From the NCBI GenBank assembly GCA_964291445.2, contig OZ219862.1, positions 1,184,669 to 1,248,668 on the forward strand: a DNA stretch of 64,000 bases, written 5' to 3'. Below the pieces are notes generated by a model that was not told the origin of the DNA, searched no databases, and saw nothing but the letters and a program-made list of their open reading frames with translations. Of this stretch, positions 9,922 to 36,986 are shown in pieces; the stretch's first letter is position 1, and every line of letters starts with the position of its first letter. The translations under genes and the position numbers were made by a program. Source of the stretch: Paracoccaceae bacterium (lineage in GTDB: Bacteria; Pseudomonadota; Alphaproteobacteria; Rhodobacterales; Rhodobacteraceae).

Positions 9922-10838
9922 CCGACTGCCTGATCGTCCAGCCCATCGCCGCTGCTGGCCTCGACCTGCTGCACCACGCCGGGCTGTCGGTCGGCACACC
10001 GGACTCCACCGATCTCGCCACACTCGAACCTCACCTGGCCACCGCCCGGGCGGTTATTACCCGCAATCACGGGTTGTCGGCGGTCGAAATTGCCGCCGCT
10101 CCCGGGCTCGAAGTCATTGTCAGCCATGGCGCCGGAACCGATGCCATCGACAGGAAGGCCGCAGACGCCAGGTCGGTCCCGGTCCTGTCCACGCCAGGTG
10201 TCAACACCGTGGCGGTGGCCGAACACACGATGGGACTGATCCTCGCCTGCGCCCGGCAGATACCGCAGGCTGACCAGGCAACCCGCGGCGGCGATTTCGA
10301 CTTCCGCTACCGGCAGACCGGGATCGAGATTGCCGGCAAGACACTCGGACTGGTCGGATACGGCCGGATCGCCCGCCAGGTTGCCATCCTGGCCCAGGCC
10401 TTTGCCATGGACGTCATTGCTGCATCGCGACATGCAACGGCATCGGAGATGACACGCGACGGGGTCGAATTGGTGGGAATGGACGATTTGTGCGCCCGGT
10501 CCGATATCGTGTCCCTGCATTCCAGGCCGAACCGGCATACCTGGCTCGATGCCGGGCGCATCAAGGTGCTGCGACCCGGCGCCATCATCATCAATACCGC
10601 CCGTGCCTCGCTCCTGGACGAGGCGGCGCTCATTGCCGGCCTCCAGGATGGCAGGCTGTCGGCGGCGGCAATCGATGTCTTTTCCCCGGAGCCGCCTCCC
10701 GATGACAGTCCGCTGCTTGCCTGCCCGAACCTGATCCTCACGCCGCATGTTGGCGGGGCGGCCAGGGAGGCGCTGGAGCGCACCGCAATTGCCGCCGCCG
10801 AGAAGGTCATCGCCGCCCTCGGACTTGCATCGCCATGA
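9918..10838 (+). CDS. D-isomer-specific 2-hydroxyacid dehydrogenase family protein
   Basis: 306 aa with an NAD-binding GLVGYGRIA motif and C-terminal LTPHVGG. ATGA overlaps at both ends. Confidence 0.85.
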   Translation: MTDCLIVQPIAAAGLDLLHHAGLSVGTPDSTDLATLEPHLATARAVITRNHGLSAVEIAAAPGLEVIVSHGAGTDAIDRKAADARSVPVLSTPGVNTVAVAEHTMGLILACARQIPQADQATRGGDFDFRYRQTGIEIAGKTLGLVGYGRIARQVAILAQAFAMDVIAASRHATASEMTRDGVELVGMDDLCARSDIVSLHSRPNRHTWLDAGRIKVLRPGAIIINTARASLLDEAALIAGLQDGRLSAAAIDVFSPEPPPDDSPLLACPNLILTPHVGGAAREALERTAIAAAEKVIAALGLASP

Positions 10839-11560
10839 CCGGCCCCTGGCCCCGAATCCTGCCATGCGGCGACACGGCGATTGCCGTCGAATTCGGCGAG
10901 GCCATCGATGTGGAGGTCAACCGGAAGGTCATCGGGCTGGAGCGGATGATCGAAAACCGGGCTCTCCCCGGTGTGGTCGAAACCGTGCCGACCTATCGCT
11001 CGCTTCTCGTGCATCTTGACCCGCTGACTGCTGACCATGCAGGCCTCACCAAGACGCTGGCCAGGCTGGCCGAGGCGGCCACCCCGCAGGCAGGGTGCCG
11101 GCGCCGCTGGCGGGTTCCGGTCGTCTATGGCGGCGAATTCGGCGAGGATCTTGCCGTGCTGGCCGAGTTGCACGGGATGGGCGAGGAGCGAATTGCCGAG
11201 TTGCACAGCCGGGCGGTCTACCGGGTCCACATGGTCGGCTTCGTGCCGGGATTCACCTATCTGGGCGGGCTCGACCCGCGCTTGGCCACGCGACGCCGCA
11301 AGACGCCTCGCCGGCGTATTCCGGCCGGTTCGATCTCGATCGGCGGCCATCAGACCGCCATCGGCTCCATCGAGGCGCCAAGCGGCTGGCACCTCATCGG
11401 CGGCACGCCGGTTCGCTGCTTCCACCCCGACCGCGATCCGATCTTCCTGTTCAGGGCCGGCGACGAGGTCTGCATGGAGCCGATCCGGGCCGATGCCTGG
11501 GACGAATTGGCAGCTCTGGCCGCTGCTGGCGACATCGTTGCCGCCTGCGAAACCGCATGA
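10835..11560 (+). CDS. pxpB: 5-oxoprolinase subunit B (allophanate hydrolase subunit 1 / KipI family)
   Basis: 241 aa, KipI-like (ILPCGDTAIAVEFG..., TYRSLLVHLDP). Translationally coupled to the next gene. Confidence 0.85.
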   Translation: MTGPWPRILPCGDTAIAVEFGEAIDVEVNRKVIGLERMIENRALPGVVETVPTYRSLLVHLDPLTADHAGLTKTLARLAEAATPQAGCRRRWRVPVVYGGEFGEDLAVLAELHGMGEERIAELHSRAVYRVHMVGFVPGFTYLGGLDPRLATRRRKTPRRRIPAGSISIGGHQTAIGSIEAPSGWHLIGGTPVRCFHPDRDPIFLFRAGDEVCMEPIRADAWDELAALAAAGDIVAACETA

Positions 11561-12549
11561 CCGGGCTTCGCATCATCAATTGCGGTCCCGGCACCACGGT
11601 CCAGGACCGGGGTCGATTCGGCTGGCGCCGGTACGGTGTCTCCACCTCGGGGTACATGGACCCCGAATCGGCAGCATTGGCCAATGCCCTCGCCGGCAAC
11701 CCGCCAGACACCGCCTGCGTGGAATTCCAAATGGCGGGCGGCAGGCTGGCGGTCGAAGGCGGCAGGCTGGTCATTGCGCTCACCGGGCCCGGCACCATGC
11801 TCCGGATTGCCGGCGCCACCATCCTCGCCGGACGGTCGGCAACCGCCCGGGACGGCGACATCATCGAGATCGGACCGGTCACCGGCGGGGTCTTCGCCTA
11901 TCTGGCGATCGGCGGCGGGCTTGATCTGCCACCGGTCATGGGCAGCCTGTCCGTGCATCGACGCTCCGGCATCGGCGGCAAAGTGCTGGCAGCGGGCGAC
12001 CTGCTACCGGCGATGGCGCCCGGGCATGGCGCATGCCTGCAAACCACCCCGGCCGAGCGCCCCGCCGGTCCCATCCGGTTTGTCGCCGGGCCACAACATG
12101 ACCATTTCGCCTCCGGCGCCCTCGAATTGCTGGCCACCAGCACCTTCACCATCAGGCCCGACAGCGACCGCATGGCCTACCGGGTCTCCGGTCCGGCACT
12201 CGCCCATCGGGGCGATGGCAATATCGTCTCGGACGGGGTGCTCGCCGGCAGTATCCAGGTCCCGGGAGACGGAACACCGACCATCCTGATGCGTGATTGC
12301 CAGACCACTGGCGGCTACCCCAAGATTGCCACCATCATCAGCGCCGATATCGGTCGCATGGCCCAGATCCCACCGGGCGAGACCGTGCAGTTTGCCCGGG
12401 TCACCCTGGAAGACGCAGTCTGTATCGCCCGCCTGGCCGCCGGACGGCACCAGGAACGGCTGGCGTCAATCCGGCCGGTCACATCCCGGCCTACCACCGA
12501 ATCCCTGCTCCGGGTCAACCTCGTCGGCGGTGTGACGGCCGGCCGCTGA
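11557..12549 (+). CDS. pxpC: 5-oxoprolinase subunit C (allophanate hydrolase subunit 2 / KipA family)
   Basis: Real start taken at the ATG at 11557 (MTGLRIINCGPGTTVQDRGR...), an ATGA overlap with pxpB. The upstream part of the track ORF is out-of-frame junk over pxpB. Confidence 0.85.
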   Translation: MTGLRIINCGPGTTVQDRGRFGWRRYGVSTSGYMDPESAALANALAGNPPDTACVEFQMAGGRLAVEGGRLVIALTGPGTMLRIAGATILAGRSATARDGDIIEIGPVTGGVFAYLAIGGGLDLPPVMGSLSVHRRSGIGGKVLAAGDLLPAMAPGHGACLQTTPAERPAGPIRFVAGPQHDHFASGALELLATSTFTIRPDSDRMAYRVSGPALAHRGDGNIVSDGVLAGSIQVPGDGTPTILMRDCQTTGGYPKIATIISADIGRMAQIPPGETVQFARVTLEDAVCIARLAAGRHQERLASIRPVTSRPTTESLLRVNLVGGVTAGR

Positions 12550-31327: not shown

Positions 31328-32653
31328 ATGGCAGACGGCGCAAACAAGCTGGTTATCCGCAATGTCGGGCTGATCCTGTCCGGCAAGATCGAATCGCCAA
31401 TCCTGGACGGTGACTGCCTGGTTGCCATTGGCGGCCGGATCAGTGATTTCGGATACGAGGCGGACATCGACACCGATGGCGCCGACATCGTGGTCGATGC
31501 CATGGGGGTAACCCTGTGTCCCGGTCTCATCGACAGCCATATTCATCCCGTCGTCGGTGACTATACCCCGCGCCAGCAGCAACTGCACTGGATCGATTCC
31601 ACGCTCCATGGCGGAGTCACCACGCTGATTTCGGCTGGCGAGGTGCACATGCCCGGACGACCGAAGGATATTGTTGGCCTGAAGGCGATGGCGATTGCCG
31701 CCCAGCGCTGGTACGAGAATTTTCGCCCGTCGGGGGTCAAGGTGCTGGCCGGTGCACCGGTCATCGAACACGGCATGGAAGAGCAGGATTTCAAGGACCT
31801 CGCCGATTCCGGGGTCACCCTGCTCGGCGAGATCGGCCTCGGTTCGGTCAAGGATGGCCCGACTGCCCACCGGATGGTGGAATGGGCGCGCAAATACGGA
31901 ATCCAGAGCACCATCCACACCGGTGGCCCCTCGATCCCGGGCTCCGGCCTCATCGACAAGGATATCGTTCTCGAGGCCGGCACCGACGTGATCGGTCATA
32001 TCAATGGCGGCCATTCGGCACTGCCGGACGACCAGATCATCTGCCTCTGCGAATCCTGCCGCAAGAGCCTTGAAGTCGTTCATAACGGCAACGAACGGGC
32101 CGCCCTGCTGACCCTCAATACGGCCCGTGAGCTCGGGCAACTCGACCGGCTGATCCTCGGCACTGACGGGCCCGCCGGCTCGGGAGTACAACCCCTTGGC
32201 ATCCTGCGAATGATCGCCATGCTGTCGAGCCTAGGCAATGTTGCGGCCGAAACCGCCTTCTGCTTCGGGACCGGCAATACTTCCCGCCAGCGTGACCTCG
32301 ATGTCGGTCTGATCGAGAACGGCTATGCCGCCGATTTCGCATTGATCGACCAGGCCCAGCATGCACCAGGACGGGACATTCTCGAATCGGTCGGCCAGGG
32401 CAACCTGCCGGGCGTCGGCATGACCATCATCGACGGCATCATCCGCAGCCGACGCAGCCGCAACACCCCGCCAGCCCAGCACCTCCCATCATCGAGGGGG
32501 AATGACGTCCGAGGATTTCCCAAAGAGATGGACAGTTCGGGTGGATGTCCCAGGCGACACGCAAGAGGGAGATCAATCGTAAACCGCACAATCTTCACAG
32601 CTCTCAGCCGGCGAATCCAGCCGAATGGCAACCGCCAACTTAACAAGCTCTAA
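31328..32653 (+). CDS. ena: enamidase-like amidohydrolase (1,4,5,6-tetrahydro-6-oxonicotinate hydrolase family) with an atypical C-terminal tail
   Basis: Starts at the ATG at 31328 (MADGANKLVIRNVG...). Amidohydrolase metal motif DSHIHP. GDYTPRQQ, HTGGPSIPGS and SRNTPPA stretches match my memory of enamidase. About 55 codons after NTPPA run into low-GC DNA. Confidence 0.7.
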   Translation: MADGANKLVIRNVGLILSGKIESPILDGDCLVAIGGRISDFGYEADIDTDGADIVVDAMGVTLCPGLIDSHIHPVVGDYTPRQQQLHWIDSTLHGGVTTLISAGEVHMPGRPKDIVGLKAMAIAAQRWYENFRPSGVKVLAGAPVIEHGMEEQDFKDLADSGVTLLGEIGLGSVKDGPTAHRMVEWARKYGIQSTIHTGGPSIPGSGLIDKDIVLEAGTDVIGHINGGHSALPDDQIICLCESCRKSLEVVHNGNERAALLTLNTARELGQLDRLILGTDGPAGSGVQPLGILRMIAMLSSLGNVAAETAFCFGTGNTSRQRDLDVGLIENGYAADFALIDQAQHAPGRDILESVGQGNLPGVGMTIIDGIIRSRRSRNTPPAQHLPSSRGNDVRGFPKEMDSSGGCPRRHARGRSIVNRTIFTALSRRIQPNGNRQLNKL

Positions 32654-32980
32654 TGTCTTCTGTTTCCGGTCTTCACGAGCTTCGGGCCATCCGACTACGT
32701 TCGCATGCCCCGGCGGGTCATCGTCTCGATCGATTGCCAACCCCACGTCCCTAACATCTTGGCAGGTCAGTTCTCCCCATCCGTACAACCGCTTCCCTAA
32801 CGGCTGGCCAACTCGATCAATTCCCAGTTCACACTTGCGTCTAGTCGAAAGTCCAATCACATCGAATACAGAGAGCGCTCCCCCAACGTTGGGTTCAAAC
32901 AATTTCGGTTTTGTGCGGCCCCCTGCAAGTCGTCCGCTTTCGACCGAAAATCTAGCAAACAAGCAATCTCGTTCAGCCAC
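32573..32980 (-). CDS. hypothetical protein (island ORF A, 135 aa)
   Basis: ORF in a low-GC segment with natural-looking composition (..LYGWGELTCQDVRDVGLAIDRDDDPPGHANVVGWPE..). GTG start 22 nt after the ORF B stop. No family recognised. Confidence 0.5.
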   Translation of the reverse strand: MAERDCLFARFSVESGRLAGGRTKPKLFEPNVGGALSVFDVIGLSTRRKCELGIDRVGQPLGKRLYGWGELTCQDVRDVGLAIDRDDDPPGHANVVGWPEAREDRKQKTLELVKLAVAIRLDSPAESCEDCAVYD

Positions 32981-33002
32981 AACTTACCTGCCAAAAAACA
33001 AA

Positions 33003-33425
33003 CTATCCGAACTTTTGCAGGCAGCATCCAACCGGGCATGGTAACTCGCCCTTCCAGACGGCGGTCCCTCGGCAAGTGAAATCGTCGAACAGCGAGGCCC
33101 ACGCCAGCTTTCCTTCCGGGCAGATGCTTAGCGTAAACATCGAATCGCGTCCTGCAATCCAATCAAGATCAATCTCGCCATGTGGCGTAGCCGCAACCTC
33201 TGGATCTCCTGTGTTACTAGGCAGCAGGTCCACCAACTCTTGAGCCACGTCTACGGACTTTCTCGTTACGGCAATCGCTCCCTCTCCGTCCCAGTTGGCC
33301 GACCCGGCTGTTTCTAGGAGGCCCTCGATTTGTTTCTTAAGGTCAGACCGAATCGGCTGGTCGGCAGCAACGTACAATTGCCGCAGCCTGAGAGATTCCA
33401 GCGGAGATTTCCCAATACACGCCAA
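33003..33425 (-). CDS. hypothetical protein (island ORF B, about 140 aa; start unresolved)
   Basis: ORF in the low-GC segment (..SANWDGEGAIAVTRKSVDVAQELVDLLP..PHGEIDLDW..). Only a TTG is available as a start. An ATG ORF in the -1 frame begins at 33505. Confidence 0.45.
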   Translation of the reverse strand: MACIGKSPLESLRLRQLYVAADQPIRSDLKKQIEGLLETAGSANWDGEGAIAVTRKSVDVAQELVDLLPSNTGDPEVAATPHGEIDLDWIAGRDSMFTLSICPEGKLAWASLFDDFTCRGTAVWKGELPCPVGCCLQKFG

Positions 33426-33630
33426 CCTTGGCTCAACCGTTGCCTTTCAGCCTGCTCAGTCTCCGGGCTCTCGGAGGACAGTGCTGCCAACAGTCCTGCC
33501 CACATTGCGTCCCGAATTGACGTCAGATCGTAGGAATCAGCCCCCTCCGTTCTGCAATAACAGTGCGGTGAAGATTTAATGTATTTTCGCTGCGATCAGG
33601 AATTGTAGTCGAAATAAAATTCATGGCCCT

Positions 33631-34299
33631 TCAACTTTCTGTATCTGAAACAATTCGCTCGCGGATGCCCTTGACACATCTTCGGAAATCGCCGACCTGC
33701 TGGAGTTTTCCGACCATTGTTTCTTCACCCTCAAATTGTTGGTGGCTGTTTACTGCTACAAACAGATGTTCTCCGCTTGATTCTGCATGTGGCTCTATCC
33801 GCACGGTGTATCGGATTGATTTCTCGACAAAGGAAATTCTGGAACTAAGATTGAATTCTGATGCGCCGGTCAACTGTGCAACCGCTTCCGAAGCCAATCT
33901 TGCACAGTATTCGGAGCCATTCAATCCAACATGACTCCGCCGAATTGCCCCATCGCAATTCATGCCAAGCGCCGTCGTGCTAACCGCGTTTTTCACGTCA
34001 TCCAGCTTTTCAGCGATGATCATGGCTGCTTCGGCCAACTCGCCTGAAATGATGGTGTCTGTTTCGTTGGCCCTTAGGTCGATTCGGTCGGGCGTCATTC
34101 TCAGCTCAAATTTTCCTGAGACATAGCTGCAATGAGTAATGGGGTTAACCCGCACAATGCTAGCAAAGTCGATGCTTCCCCCAAACAGTTCGCGCTCATC
34201 CAGGAGTCCGTGAGGGAACGTCCCTACAAACACAAAGCTGTTAAGCTGCTGAATTAGCACGGTAAATTCTCCCATGGCCTTACACTCAAGCGCGAGCAT
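33631..34299 (-). CDS. hypothetical protein (island ORF C, about 214-231 aa)
   Basis: Longest ORF of the low-GC segment. First ATG at 34299; alternatives are TTG at 34326 and ATG at 34275. No family recognised. Confidence 0.55.
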   Translation of the reverse strand: MLALECKAMGEFTVLIQQLNSFVFVGTFPHGLLDERELFGGSIDFASIVRVNPITHCSYVSGKFELRMTPDRIDLRANETDTIISGELAEAAMIIAEKLDDVKNAVSTTALGMNCDGAIRRSHVGLNGSEYCARLASEAVAQLTGASEFNLSSRISFVEKSIRYTVRIEPHAESSGEHLFVAVNSHQQFEGEETMVGKLQQVGDFRRCVKGIRERIVSDTES

Positions 34300-34509
34300 A
34301 GTAATTTGCAGTTCAAGGCACAACAATATCCTTGGAGCCGGGAGGCAGTCGGTCTGGCGGTCAATCTATGGCCAATCCGGCGAGTCCAAGACACCAACGC
34401 CTTCACTTTTTCGTGCCTCGGCCTGTCTCGCTTAGCACTCCTGCCTGACATAAACGCAAGAAACCGGGCACGCCTTCTTGAGACTGTCCCCTCGCATGCC
34501 AAGGCAGGC

Positions 34510-35826
34510 CTATCCGGAAGGTTCTTCCGTAGCCTCGCTGCCGGTCGGGCCCTCCGGCTGGCCGAGGCCGAGCAGGCCGGAGGCCTGGCCGGCGTCGGGT
34601 AGCTGCTCGACATCCCGCAGGGTCCGGTCCATGGCCCGGCGCCTGGTATCGGTGGTCTCGAGGGTGCGGGAGACGGTGCCGACCTGTTGCTTGACCTTGT
34701 CGAGGACCTTGCCGAATTTGCCGAATTCCAGCTTGACCGCCGACAGCACTTTCCAGACCTCGCTTGAGCGCTTTTCGATCGCCAGGGTGCGGAAGCCCAT
34801 CTGCAGGGAGTTGAGAATCGCCGCCAACGTGGTTGGTCCGGCAACCACGATCCGGTGTTGGCGCTGCAGCTTGTCAAGCATCTCCGGCGAGCGGACCACC
34901 TCGGCATAGAGCCCCTCGGTCGGGAGATAGAGGATGGCAAAATCGGTGGTGAATGGCGGGTTGACATATTTCGACCGGATTTCCCTGGCAAATCCCTCGA
35001 CTGCCCGAAGAAGGCTGCCGGAGGCCTGCTGCACCTTCTGGCTGTCGCCCTCCTCGGCTGCCTCCAGCAGGCGGTTGTAGTCTTCCATCGGGAACTTGGC
35101 GTCGATCGGCAACAGCACCTCCGACTCGCCGTCATCGGCACCCGGCAATTTGATGGCAAATTCGACGATGTCGTTGGTCTCCGGGTTGGGCTTGGCGTTG
35201 CGGTAGAACTGGACCGGCGCCAGGATCTGTTCGAGCAGGGTGCCGAGCTGGATCTCGCCCCAGCCGCCCCTGGTCTTGACGTTGGATAGCACCGCCTTGA
35301 GGTCGCCAACGCCGGTGGCCAGCTTCTGCATCTCGCCAAGCCCCTGGTGGACCGCCTCGAGCCGGTCGCTGACCAGCTTGAATGACTCGCCCAGCCGTTT
35401 CTCCAGCGTCCCCTGCAGCTTCTCGTCAACGGTCTGGCGCATCTTCTCCAGCCTGTCCTCGTTGCTCTTCTGCAACGAACCAAGCTGGTCGCCGACCTTT
35501 TCGGTGAGAGTTTCGAGCCGTTTCTCGTTGCGATCGGACAGGTTCCTGATCTCGCCCCGCATCTCCAGAAGCTGCGAGCTGCGCGCCTCATCGAGTTTCC
35601 TGATGGTTCCGGTCAGTGCCTCGGTGTTGCGCTGGCTGGACTGGTCCAGCTCCTCCCGCAGCTTGCGGGCTGCGCTGGCGCTCTCCTCCCGGGATTCCCG
35701 GAACTGACCCCGCAGGGCCTCGTCCGACAGACCGGAGCCACCCCGCGTTCGGCCGATGAACAGCGCCGCCACGAGAACCAGGTTGGCGGCGGCCAGACCC
35801 AATATGATCATCAATTCCAGCGACAT
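34510..35826 (-). CDS. rmuC: DNA recombination protein RmuC
   Basis: N-terminal TM segment, a long coiled-coil and a conserved C-terminal region (LPIDAKFP..., FAILYLPTEGLYAE, IVVAGPTTLAAILNSLQMGF). Start at the ATG at 35826. Confidence 0.85.
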   Translation of the reverse strand: MSLELMIILGLAAANLVLVAALFIGRTRGGSGLSDEALRGQFRESREESASAARKLREELDQSSQRNTEALTGTIRKLDEARSSQLLEMRGEIRNLSDRNEKRLETLTEKVGDQLGSLQKSNEDRLEKMRQTVDEKLQGTLEKRLGESFKLVSDRLEAVHQGLGEMQKLATGVGDLKAVLSNVKTRGGWGEIQLGTLLEQILAPVQFYRNAKPNPETNDIVEFAIKLPGADDGESEVLLPIDAKFPMEDYNRLLEAAEEGDSQKVQQASGSLLRAVEGFAREIRSKYVNPPFTTDFAILYLPTEGLYAEVVRSPEMLDKLQRQHRIVVAGPTTLAAILNSLQMGFRTLAIEKRSSEVWKVLSAVKLEFGKFGKVLDKVKQQVGTVSRTLETTDTRRRAMDRTLRDVEQLPDAGQASGLLGLGQPEGPTGSEATEEPSG

Positions 35827-35950
35827 GACCTGCTCCGACGGACCCGGCTTCCCGATAACCGGTGCCCGGAAACAGTGCAATGGCACCCGGCCGGGACGAA
35901 TTTCGCCAGCGGCAGTGCCTGATCCGGAACAGCTGGCGGCGCGGCCTGCT

Positions 35951-36397
35951 TCAGGTCAGCTTGGCCACCAGTTGCAGGAAGACCTCGCGTTCGCCATCGG
36001 TGAGCGGCTCGAGTGTCGAGCGGGTAATGCCATTGCCCTGGCGGTGAAGTTCCGGGATGGCCGCCTTGCCGGCGCGTGACAGGATGATCAGCTTGCGCCT
36101 CCGGTCATTCGGATCATCGGTAAACTCGACCAGCCCCTTCTCGAAGATCCGGTCGACCACCCCCTTGGCCGTGGCGACATCCATCTTGATCCGGCGGCCG
36201 AGGTCATTCTGGGAGCACTCGCCGATCTCGGCAATCTTGACCAGGGCGGCAAACTGGGTCGGGGTCAATCCGCACGGTGCCTGCGTCTGGAAGATGGCGA
36301 CATGTCGCTGGTTGGCCAGCCTGAGCAGAAACCCGACCTGTTCCTCGAGAAGGTAGGCTTCCGGCTCGCTGCCTTCGCTCGCTGCAGTCCTGGTCAT
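35951..36397 (-). CDS. MarR family transcriptional regulator (candidate nicotinate-cluster repressor)
   Basis: 148 aa, winged-HTH MarR-like (LTPTQFAALVKIAEIGECSQNDLGRRI...DRRRKLI). Last gene of the nicotinate operon. Confidence 0.8.
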   Translation of the reverse strand: MTRTAASEGSEPEAYLLEEQVGFLLRLANQRHVAIFQTQAPCGLTPTQFAALVKIAEIGECSQNDLGRRIKMDVATAKGVVDRIFEKGLVEFTDDPNDRRRKLIILSRAGKAAIPELHRQGNGITRSTLEPLTDGEREVFLQLVAKLT

Positions 36398-36401
36398 GGG
36401 C

Positions 36402-36986
36402 TCAGCGAAGCCCGTCCTTGCCCTCGGCCTCGGCGGCAGCGAGCCCACCAACCCTGGGCAGCGGGCGTCCGCTGTCGGTAACTGCCACCGCCACCATGAT
36501 TTCGCCGGAACGCGGCGCGTCATTCAACCTGACCTCGATTCCATCAAAGTGCGACCTGACATAGGCGGCATCCTTGTGCCCGAGCGGAACATCCAGCGGA
36601 TGGCCCATGCCGCCGGCCTTCTTCGAAGACGGAACCAGGGCCGCACCCTTGCCAACCGCCTTTCGCAGCGGTGCTCCGAGCTTCGGATGCAGGATGGCGG
36701 CGGCATGCTCAAGCTCGCCGCCCTCGCCAACCAAGGCCGCCTTGCCATAGCTTTCAGCCTCGTCCGGCCGGATCCCCAGCGCACCCACACACATATCGCC
36801 GAGCAGCCCGCCCAGTTCGGCGCCGATATCCATCAGCAGCGACAAATCCTCGACAAACTCTCCGGCATATGGATTGGCAATCACTGCCACTGCCACTGCC
36901 TTGCGGGTCGGCGGCTCAATCTCCTTCCCGGCTTCCTGGCAGGTCTCCTCGACGCTCACCAGTGTTTTGCGAATTTGTGCCTTCAT
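36402..36986 (-). CDS. amino acid synthesis family protein (DUF1185), paralog 2
   Basis: 194 aa. Clearly paralogous to the upstream gene (shared ..YVRSHFD.IE..L.DAP.. and the C-terminal G.DGLR). Confidence 0.7.
   Translation of the reverse strand: MKAQIRKTLVSVEETCQEAGKEIEPPTRKAVAVAVIANPYAGEFVEDLSLLMDIGAELGGLLGDMCVGALGIRPDEAESYGKAALVGEGGELEHAAAILHPKLGAPLRKAVGKGAALVPSSKKAGGMGHPLDVPLGHKDAAYVRSHFDGIEVRLNDAPRSGEIMVAVAVTDSGRPLPRVGGLAAAEAEGKDGLR

Follow-up and report, generated by a model that had tools for sequence, protein, structure and literature searches.

In this study we analysed a window of 64,000 nucleotides from a Paracoccaceae bacterium (contig OZ219862.1 of assembly GCA_964291445.2, positions 1,184,669 to 1,248,668 of the forward strand) and in particular a segment of about 2 kb within it (32480..34509 of the window, no strand being assigned), which was delimited by the profile of guanine plus cytosine (G+C) content and by the end of homology in the neighbouring enamidase gene. 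The segment holds three genes on the minus strand, in the order C, B and A: gene C (33631..34275; 214 amino acids from an ATG at 34275), gene B (33003..33425; at most 140 amino acids from a TTG start) and gene A (32573..32980; 135 amino acids from a GTG start). An earlier note, made from the sequence alone, had pointed to these three co-oriented open reading frames (ORFs) as a cassette of foreign composition between the enamidase gene and rmuC, and we found them where it had placed them.

The low-G+C insert at the enamidase-marR junction

The drop in G+C that the earlier note had estimated by hand at 32.5-34.5 kb is clearly visible both in the G+C profile and in the G+C content of third codon positions (GC3). 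The 1.9-kb stretch with the lowest G+C of the entire 64 kb begins at 32,501 and has a value of 0.525 against a mean of 0.627 (standard deviation 0.024, that is, about 4 standard deviations below the mean), the next-lowest stretch of this length elsewhere in the window having a value of 0.575. When the window was divided in bins of 1 kb, the bin at 33-34 kb was the lowest (0.524), all others ranging between 0.583 and 0.691, and windows of 300 nucleotides gave values of 0.46-0.56 at about 32,550-34,450 against 0.59-0.69 on either side, the G+C content having risen again no more than 150 nucleotides from the stop codon of rmuC. GC3 values were 0.49, 0.60 and 0.51 for genes A, B and C, respectively, whereas rmuC has a value of 0.84 and the enamidase gene one of 0.76. 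The insert is therefore foreign in composition and was acquired horizontally.

The gene to the left of the insert matches the amidohydrolase family of Pfam, and its product aligns with the solved enamidase structure 2VUN over residues 2-381 of 386. Nucleotide similarity to the enamidase genes of Sulfitobacter and Rhizobium replicons stops at about position 32,478 and protein similarity stops at residue 389 (nucleotide 32,491); the Sulfitobacter orthologue terminates six residues past the last shared residue. In the window the ORF reads on for 53 codons into the insert (32492..32653, plus strand), an extension that is non-native as judged by alignment to 2VUN and to the Sulfitobacter orthologue and that lies antisense to the 3' end of gene A, with an overlap of 81 nucleotides. 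Because the homology stops at about residue 389 whereas the ORF continues for 53 codons, the overwriting of the 3' end of the enamidase gene that had been proposed is real: judged from these alignments, the insert has replaced the final 5-6 codons or so of the gene with the loss of its native stop codon, and the enamidase protein probably carries a non-native C-terminal tail of 53 residues. Alignment with the syntenic region, which had been recommended as a way to define the insertion borders, mapped the left border through the end of enamidase homology (32,478-32,491) and only bracketed the right one, within about 34,330-34,509.

In the Sulfitobacter plasmids and Rhizobium replicons carrying the same nicotinate-degradation genes, the enamidase gene and marR converge on each other with nothing in between, and in Sulfitobacter they overlap. 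In the window, 3.4 kb separate the enamidase gene from marR (35951-36523), and these are made up by the cassette and rmuC (34510-35886; Pfam RmuC, E 7e-71). The composition of rmuC is native, as its GC3 indicates, and no rmuC gene was found near the trio at any other locus that we examined, which makes it a bystander. We accordingly rejected rmuC as a component of the system, and its adjacency, which the earlier note had offered as fitting an accessory module, is coincidental. Since this gene of native composition also lies between the enamidase gene and marR, the nicotinate cluster has been interrupted by more than the low-G+C cassette. For the source genome the consequence is an interrupted nicotinate-degradation cluster whose enamidase would bear the non-native tail, and the edges of this cluster may be places where small cassettes of the toxin-antitoxin type insert repeatedly. 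A VapC gene and a small gene upstream of it adjoin the ferredoxin-NADP reductase and enamidase genes in a Sulfitobacter plasmid (NZ_CP081115; locus L102, 2271-2944).

Signatures of mobility were as scarce in the window as had been claimed: no integrase or transposase was present among its ORFs, its single tRNA lies at 56 kb, away from the insert, and a search for direct or inverted repeats flanking the insert gave none that was convincing. Scanning for terminators and promoters around the insert likewise yielded nothing convincing, and an Rfam scan returned one sub-threshold chance match and nothing more. The region upstream of C, between the stop codon of rmuC and the start of C (34276..34509, minus strand), is non-coding, no ORF with homologues being found there, and is presumed to be the promoter region of the cassette; a simple sigma-70 scan of this region found no site on the minus strand.

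Genes C, B and A and their conservation

The arrangement C-B-A, with the same order and strand, was found in at least 13 other loci (L001-L007, L011-L013, L096, L099 and L101), the hosts of which include Paracoccaceae, other Alphaproteobacteria, Dehalococcoidia, Binatia and Arenicellales. The co-occurrence of the trio in unrelated genomes, proposed earlier as a test of the cassette, thus extends over several phyla. Of 13 trio-class loci, 11 have a module whose G+C content is about 10 points lower than that of the flanking DNA. Pairwise ratios of non-synonymous to synonymous substitution rates (dN/dS) ranged between 0.13 and 0.31 for C and between 0.07 and 0.18 for the conserved domain of B, and the value for A was 0.25. 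All three genes are under purifying selection, and these values, together with the confident AlphaFold2 (AF2) models obtained for A and C, agree with the earlier impression that the ORFs are real and natural-looking. Variant arrangements also exist: one locus (L008) has a truncated C followed by B and has lost A, in two others (L009 and L010) the genes that come after the C homologue are B-like and A-like but divergent, and one (L014) has the B-A pair with no C. The trio of L011 is a degraded form in which (10381-12097) C is split by a 1.7-kb insertion that contains a 442-amino acid ORF resembling, to the eye, an insertion sequence (IS) transposase; gene A of the same locus is frameshifted. 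On a contig of 425 kb a single ORF (P0032, 225 amino acids) joins the B domain to an A from which an internal deletion has removed the middle; it probably represents a decayed module, which also shows the linkage between B and A.

These results bear on the possibility that the three ORFs are native core genes of odd composition, or chance ORFs, and that no system was acquired. The lack of an integrase, a tRNA or flanking repeats at the insert would agree with such an explanation, which nevertheless has to face the facts that the enamidase gene of relatives abuts marR with none of A, B or C in between, that the enamidase stop codon has been replaced, that distant phyla have homologues with the gene order unchanged and with low dN/dS values, and that the models of A and C are confident. 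We regard it as highly improbable.

The earlier note could assign none of the three proteins to a family, and our searches gave the same result. No match was found in Pfam, NCBIfam or PHROG for A, B or C (C gave none in NCBIfam at E <= 1, A gave none in PADLOC at E <= 1, and PADLOC had no family matching C either), nor for 150 members of the A family or 48 members of the B family. No family that would place the genes in ordinary metabolism was thus encountered. Profiles of the A, B and C families found no relatives among the sequences of the Protein Data Bank (PDB). Since the trio recurs, matches no metabolic family and has a non-native G+C content in relatives, none of the findings that the note had named as grounds to abandon the cassette was made.

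Gene A belongs to a very large family. A word-based protein search found 15 homologues of A, and an exhaustive search with a hidden Markov model (HMM) built from their alignment retrieved 2,170 cluster representatives when the cutoff was E <= 1e-3, of which 823 also passed E <= 1e-10; these represent clusters at 50% identity, are mostly 120-150 amino acids long and come from many phyla. The protein has the motifs LARF, KPKLFEP, LSVF, LYGW and DDxPPxHANxxGWP, and its invariant or near-invariant residues include Arg10, Lys24, Lys26, Glu29, Ser37, Asp86, His92, Asn94 and Trp98; among 150 distant members the near-invariant positions are Pro30, Ser37, Gly53, Gly67, Leu81, Pro89, His92, Trp98 and Leu112. 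The copy in the window keeps every residue that is invariant in the family. The AF2 model (predicted local distance difference test, pLDDT, of 90.7) is that of a small alpha/beta protein, for which Foldseek found no match either in the PDB, where the best E was 0.5, or in BFVD, where it was 0.44.

Gene B was found by the word-based search in two homologues only, and its conservation is confined to one part of the protein. The domain that is conserved, of about 120 amino acids, is C-terminal (about 33003-33365 in the window; consensus NWDGEGA...P.V.ATPHGE.D.DW), is wholly intact in the window and is 57-72% identical to the C-terminal 120 amino acids of B in loci L001, L002 and L096 (69% for L096). 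The N-terminal half of B is not conserved, and in one and the same pair of sequences it diverges about six times faster than the C-terminal domain (dN of 0.82 against 0.13). In those three loci B begins at or just past the stop codon of C and has about 100 additional N-terminal residues, and an overlap of C and B is present in the close trio homologues L096 and L099. In the window a spacer of 205 nucleotides lies between C and B (33426..33630, minus strand), with the lowest G+C content of the insert (0.46). Translation in three frames, together with a tblastn search in which the B proteins of L001, L002 and L096 served as queries, showed it to have stops in all three frames; it holds an ORF of 33 codons that begins 8 nucleotides past the stop codon of C and, in another frame, part of an ORF of 63 codons (33314-33505). 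The spacer probably is the decayed and frameshifted coding sequence of the N-terminal half of B and, since it has stops where the homologues encode about 100 amino acids, the B of the window would be a short or decayed form of the gene.

How much importance should be given to this loss is a matter of weighing two sets of observations. Partial decay of B in the window is a real possibility, and one may go further and propose that the entire cassette, once acquired, has since begun to decay in this genome and survives as a remnant. In that case B would have lost its N-terminal half to frameshifts or stops and the module would have ceased to work as a system, while C and A may linger as relics, or A may by now be inactive or tolerated. 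Besides the spacer, B is obliged to start at a TTG codon, other loci are decayed (L008, L011 and P0032), and the A and B sequences of the window are absent from a collection of 15 billion proteins, in which C is present (P0001, 214 amino acids). A and B both have start codons other than ATG and an atypical composition, and their absence while C is present may mean that they were overlooked when genes were called in the source record. Against the decay of the cassette as a whole, all the invariant residues of A and C and the complete B domain are intact, and the N-terminal half of B, not being conserved in the family, may be dispensable. Moreover, short B genes have been called in two other loci (131 amino acids in L014 and 147 in L013), although longer ORFs are open upstream in both, and these calls indicate that the B domain alone may suffice. 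The local copy of B looks N-terminally decayed and may lack full function. Taking both sides into account we consider it rather unlikely that the cassette is a mere remnant, an explanation that in any case does not exclude the conflict function discussed below.

The start of gene C is probably the ATG at 34275, as in the database protein P0001, the ORF remaining open further to a TTG at 34326 (33631-34326). The word-based search found 16 clusters of homologues with identities of 31-59%, and the family shows invariant motifs rich in polar residues (FDERELFGG, PDRIDL, GMNCD, RIEPH and NGHQ), every invariant residue being kept in the window. The AF2 model (pLDDT 88, predicted template-modelling score, pTM, 0.85) consists of two tandem beta-alpha-beta4-alpha repeats. 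In the PDB, Foldseek matched it best to TBP and to AdoMetDC prozyme chains (E 1e-4 to 1e-3, probability about 1.0), and weaker matches include CYTH and triphosphate-tunnel enzymes. With moderate confidence, resting on this model, we predict C to have a TBP-like duplicated fold.

An operon family with TIGR04255 in first position

Examination of the neighbourhood of A in metagenomes placed the cassette within a much larger group of operons. Scanning for the motif HANI[VI]GWP, which was built on a subset of 14 sequences of the A alignment, gave 317 confirmed loci, of which 80 were fetched. A gene of about 165 amino acids with the B domain lies directly upstream of A in 74 of these 80 (E 1e-13 to 1e-25, with a B HMM made from trio-class B domains, that of the window included), and A is near the contig edge in the remaining 6. 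Among the 56 loci in which the sequence extends far enough upstream of B, 54 have a gene of about 247 amino acids there, and in 52 of the 54 its stop codon overlaps the start of B by 4 nucleotides. This gene belongs to the NCBIfam family TIGR04255, for which its products in L017, L024, L027, L041 and L045 score 123-147 bits (cutoff 30). In two loci only (L028 and L051) was B-A not preceded by a TIGR04255-like gene. Since TIGR04255 precedes B-A at nearly all typical loci, the operon in its usual form reads TIGR04255-B-A, and the cassette of the window is a rare variant with C in the first position.

The relation between C and TIGR04255 is, as far as their sequences allow us to judge, one of equivalent position only. 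The possibility that C is a divergent TIGR04255 protein found no sequence support, the hhalign probability being 0.2 even with enlarged profiles, and the TIGR04255 family profile, in turn, found no relatives among PDB sequences. A literature search on TIGR04255, CHP04255 and IPR026349 found no papers in the library covered. The description of the cassette as undescribed holds in the sense that it corresponds to no characterised system; it is not an orphan, because A and B belong to this very large family.

Defence context, proposed function and relation to known systems

Three lines of evidence connect the operons to conflict systems. The first is genomic context: about 6 of about 19 loci adjoin, or lie inside, restriction-modification (RM) or toxin-antitoxin genes. 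The trio adjoins a type I RM system with AbiEi and AAA_21/DUF4276 in L012, VapBC and a type I RM system in L099, a GmrSD_N gene in L101 (with DruA 9 kb away) and the gene of an HNH_2 protein in L096, and L001 has IS elements, a group II intron and three integrases around it. In L014 (9609-10402) the B-A pair, with neither C nor TIGR04255, shares the orientation of the DUF3780 and DUF1156 genes that enclose it and that belong to a restriction-like system of the type DUF499/DUF1156/AlbA_2/PLD-SNF2, upstream of which there is a HepT-MNT pair; DUF3780, which stands ahead of B-A in that locus, was considered as a homologue of C and rejected (hhalign probability 0.1). Of the proximity to known defence genes, enrichment for which the earlier note had wanted checked, this minority of loci gives examples, most of the other loci lying among housekeeping genes.

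The second line is the similarity to a predicted defence system. The PDC systems are 145 phage defence candidates, predicted because they lie within loci of BREX, DISARM or type I RM (10.1101/2024.01.29.577857). PDC-M32 is a two-gene candidate of this kind, included in PADLOC-DB v2 and predicted by guilt-by-embedding (Payne et al., bioRxiv 10.1101/2024.01.29.577857). In PADLOC, 11 different B proteins match the C-terminal part of PDC-M32A weakly (E 1e-4 to 8e-3); for the B of the window the match, also weak, has an E of 0.0084 and covers profile positions 258-328 of 375. One member of the A family (L027) matches PDC-M32B (E 0.0076, positions 18-114 of 123), and neither C nor the TIGR04255 proteins match PDC-M32A in PADLOC. 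Though weak, the matches of B and A to the two candidate proteins are reciprocal and agree with one another. A literature search on PDC-M32 found it mentioned only in one prophage survey.

The third line is the company that TIGR04255 keeps elsewhere. On a plasmid of Vibrio parahaemolyticus (CP063527; L105, 158-2105) a TIGR04255 gene is followed by a hypothetical gene of 179 amino acids and an overlapping zeta-toxin gene, the two partners not being homologous to B or A (no HMM similarity), and on a Rhodococcus plasmid a TIGR04255 gene is followed by that of a transcriptional regulator.

Taking all these results together, the explanation that we prefer is that the cassette is a horizontally acquired tripartite conflict module, toxin-antitoxin-like or of the abortive-infection type, in which A would be the effector, B a neutraliser or adaptor and C a sensor or regulator; our judgement on this is evenly poised between acceptance and doubt. 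The foreign composition, the insertion at a junction of enamidase and marR that is conserved in relatives, the gene order maintained across phyla, the purifying selection and the family relationship of A and B to the TIGR04255-type operons are observations. The roles of the three proteins, and any toxicity, neutralisation, sensing or anti-phage action, we infer from the architecture, distribution and context of the operons, from the paralogous operon with a zeta toxin and from the similarity to PDC-M32. Under the proposed mechanism A would be a putative effector or toxin, with Ser37, His92 and Trp98 as its near-invariant residues. B would either hold A in check or couple it to a trigger through the conserved C-terminal NWDGxGA domain, its fast-evolving N-terminal half conferring specificity. 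C, having a predicted TBP fold and standing in the position of TIGR04255, would bind nucleic acid or a ligand and thus act as sensor or regulator of the A-B pair. The frequent decay of the module (L008, L011, P0032 and the B of the window) is what would be expected of dispensable conflict genes.

Several observations weigh against this explanation. The similarities to PDC-M32 are weak and partial, and PDC-M32 is itself a candidate only. Housekeeping genes make up most of the neighbours of eight trio loci and also prevail around L003-L011. C and TIGR04255 are equivalent by position only. No recognised toxin, nuclease or NTPase domain and no DNA-binding antitoxin domain (helix-turn-helix, ribbon-helix-helix, AbrB or PHD) was found in the trio proteins, or in 150 A-family and 48 B-family members, with Pfam, NCBIfam, PHROG and PADLOC. 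Moreover, tblastn searches with the A of the window and with one A of the TIGR04255 type found no match in 72,556 plasmids and 50,697 phages; B gave no match in the plasmid and phage collections either, and single-sequence tblastn found three matches of the TIGR04255 type in them. Such scarcity on plasmids and phages is unusual for classical toxin-antitoxin modules. A scan for the motif HANI[VI]GW identified two IMG/VR contigs that are predicted to be viral, L097 with TIGR04255-B-A and L098 with a divergent B-A pair, and C was found in no viral contig.

Part of this evidence would suit equally well a mobile accessory function unrelated to conflict, such as a small enzyme complex or a regulatory unit acting on a nucleotide, a nucleic acid or a metabolite. 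The many invariant Asp, Glu, His, Cys and Asn residues of C would be as much at home in an enzyme, where they would suggest an active or ligand-binding site, and the CYTH and triphosphate-tunnel enzymes among its weaker structural matches, as well as the near-invariant Ser and His of A, point in the same direction; so do the mostly housekeeping neighbours and the scarcity on phages and plasmids. However, the operons have no conserved metabolic neighbourhood, their neighbours being different in every genome, their G+C content is consistently below that of the host, they are distributed sporadically across phyla and decay frequently, and at several loci they are embedded in RM or toxin-antitoxin genes or lie beside them, to which the similarity to PDC-M32 must be added. 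We believe a function of this kind to be unlikely, and the conflict module, which agrees with the role of toxin-antitoxin or defence type suggested by the earlier note, is the best reading available, with the qualification that its link to defence is circumstantial.

A broader generalisation of the conflict module is possible, though doubtful: the operons C/TIGR04255-B-A may form a very widespread and hitherto unrecognised class of tripartite conflict systems. A first component of TBP fold would sense the nucleic acid of an invader or some cellular cue, B would gate the response by means of its fast-evolving N-terminal region, and A would be an effector whose fold is absent from solved structures; in the window the sensor gene would have been exchanged for one of the C family, unrelated to it in sequence. 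If this were true, the insert would lead to a large family of operons lacking a Pfam entry, a solved structure or a match in the literature library searched, its A family alone comprising at least 2,170 clusters, and that is linked to known biology only through the NCBIfam label "sporadically distributed" given to TIGR04255 and the weak similarity to the PDC-M32 candidate. Its first gene, of predicted TBP fold, would be swappable between operons, the gene being either TIGR04255 or C and the downstream partners either A-B or a zeta toxin. A putative effector to which neither PDB nor BFVD offers a structural match would be of interest for bacterial immunity and for toxin-antitoxin studies, and the operon family supplies many natural variants. 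The main value of the insert lies in having exposed this large and unstudied family of operons.

Comparison with known systems shows likeness in architecture at different distances. With the proteins of TBP-domain fold, C shares the duplicated beta-alpha-beta4-alpha architecture of its model, TBP and the AdoMetDC prozyme being the top matches in the PDB, whereas the template-modelling scores are only 0.33-0.39 and sequence identity is about 10%. The omega-epsilon-zeta systems also consist of three small genes, of which a putative regulator, neutraliser and effector follow one another in that order, and the layout of the Vibrio plasmid locus resembles them with TIGR04255 in first place; in contrast, A is not a zeta toxin and B is not an epsilon protein (no HMM similarity), and C is not a ribbon-helix-helix repressor. 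PDC-M32 shares the operon logic of small genes, and the B domain aligns at about 240-348 of the 375-residue PDC-M32A profile, but PDC-M32 has two genes and not three, the A of the window has no match to PDC-M32B (PADLOC, E <= 1), and the module of the window is neither embedded in nor next to BREX, DISARM or type I RM systems, its neighbours being the enamidase gene and rmuC; the embedding that characterises PDC-M32 is seen in the relatives L014, L012 and L099. The closest likeness is to the TIGR04255-type operon. The cassette departs from it in that its first gene fails the NCBIfam TIGR04255 model (no match at E <= 1), in that the B of the trio class has a long hypervariable N-terminal half as opposed to a helical one of about 60 amino acids, and in that gaps of 205 (C-B) and 22 nucleotides (B-A) take the place of the typical overlap of 4 nucleotides. 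Both nonetheless consist of small genes in the same order and on the same strand, are distributed sporadically and often have a G+C content below that of the host, and the B and A of the window are homologous to the second and third genes of that operon, with E values of up to 1e-57 for A.

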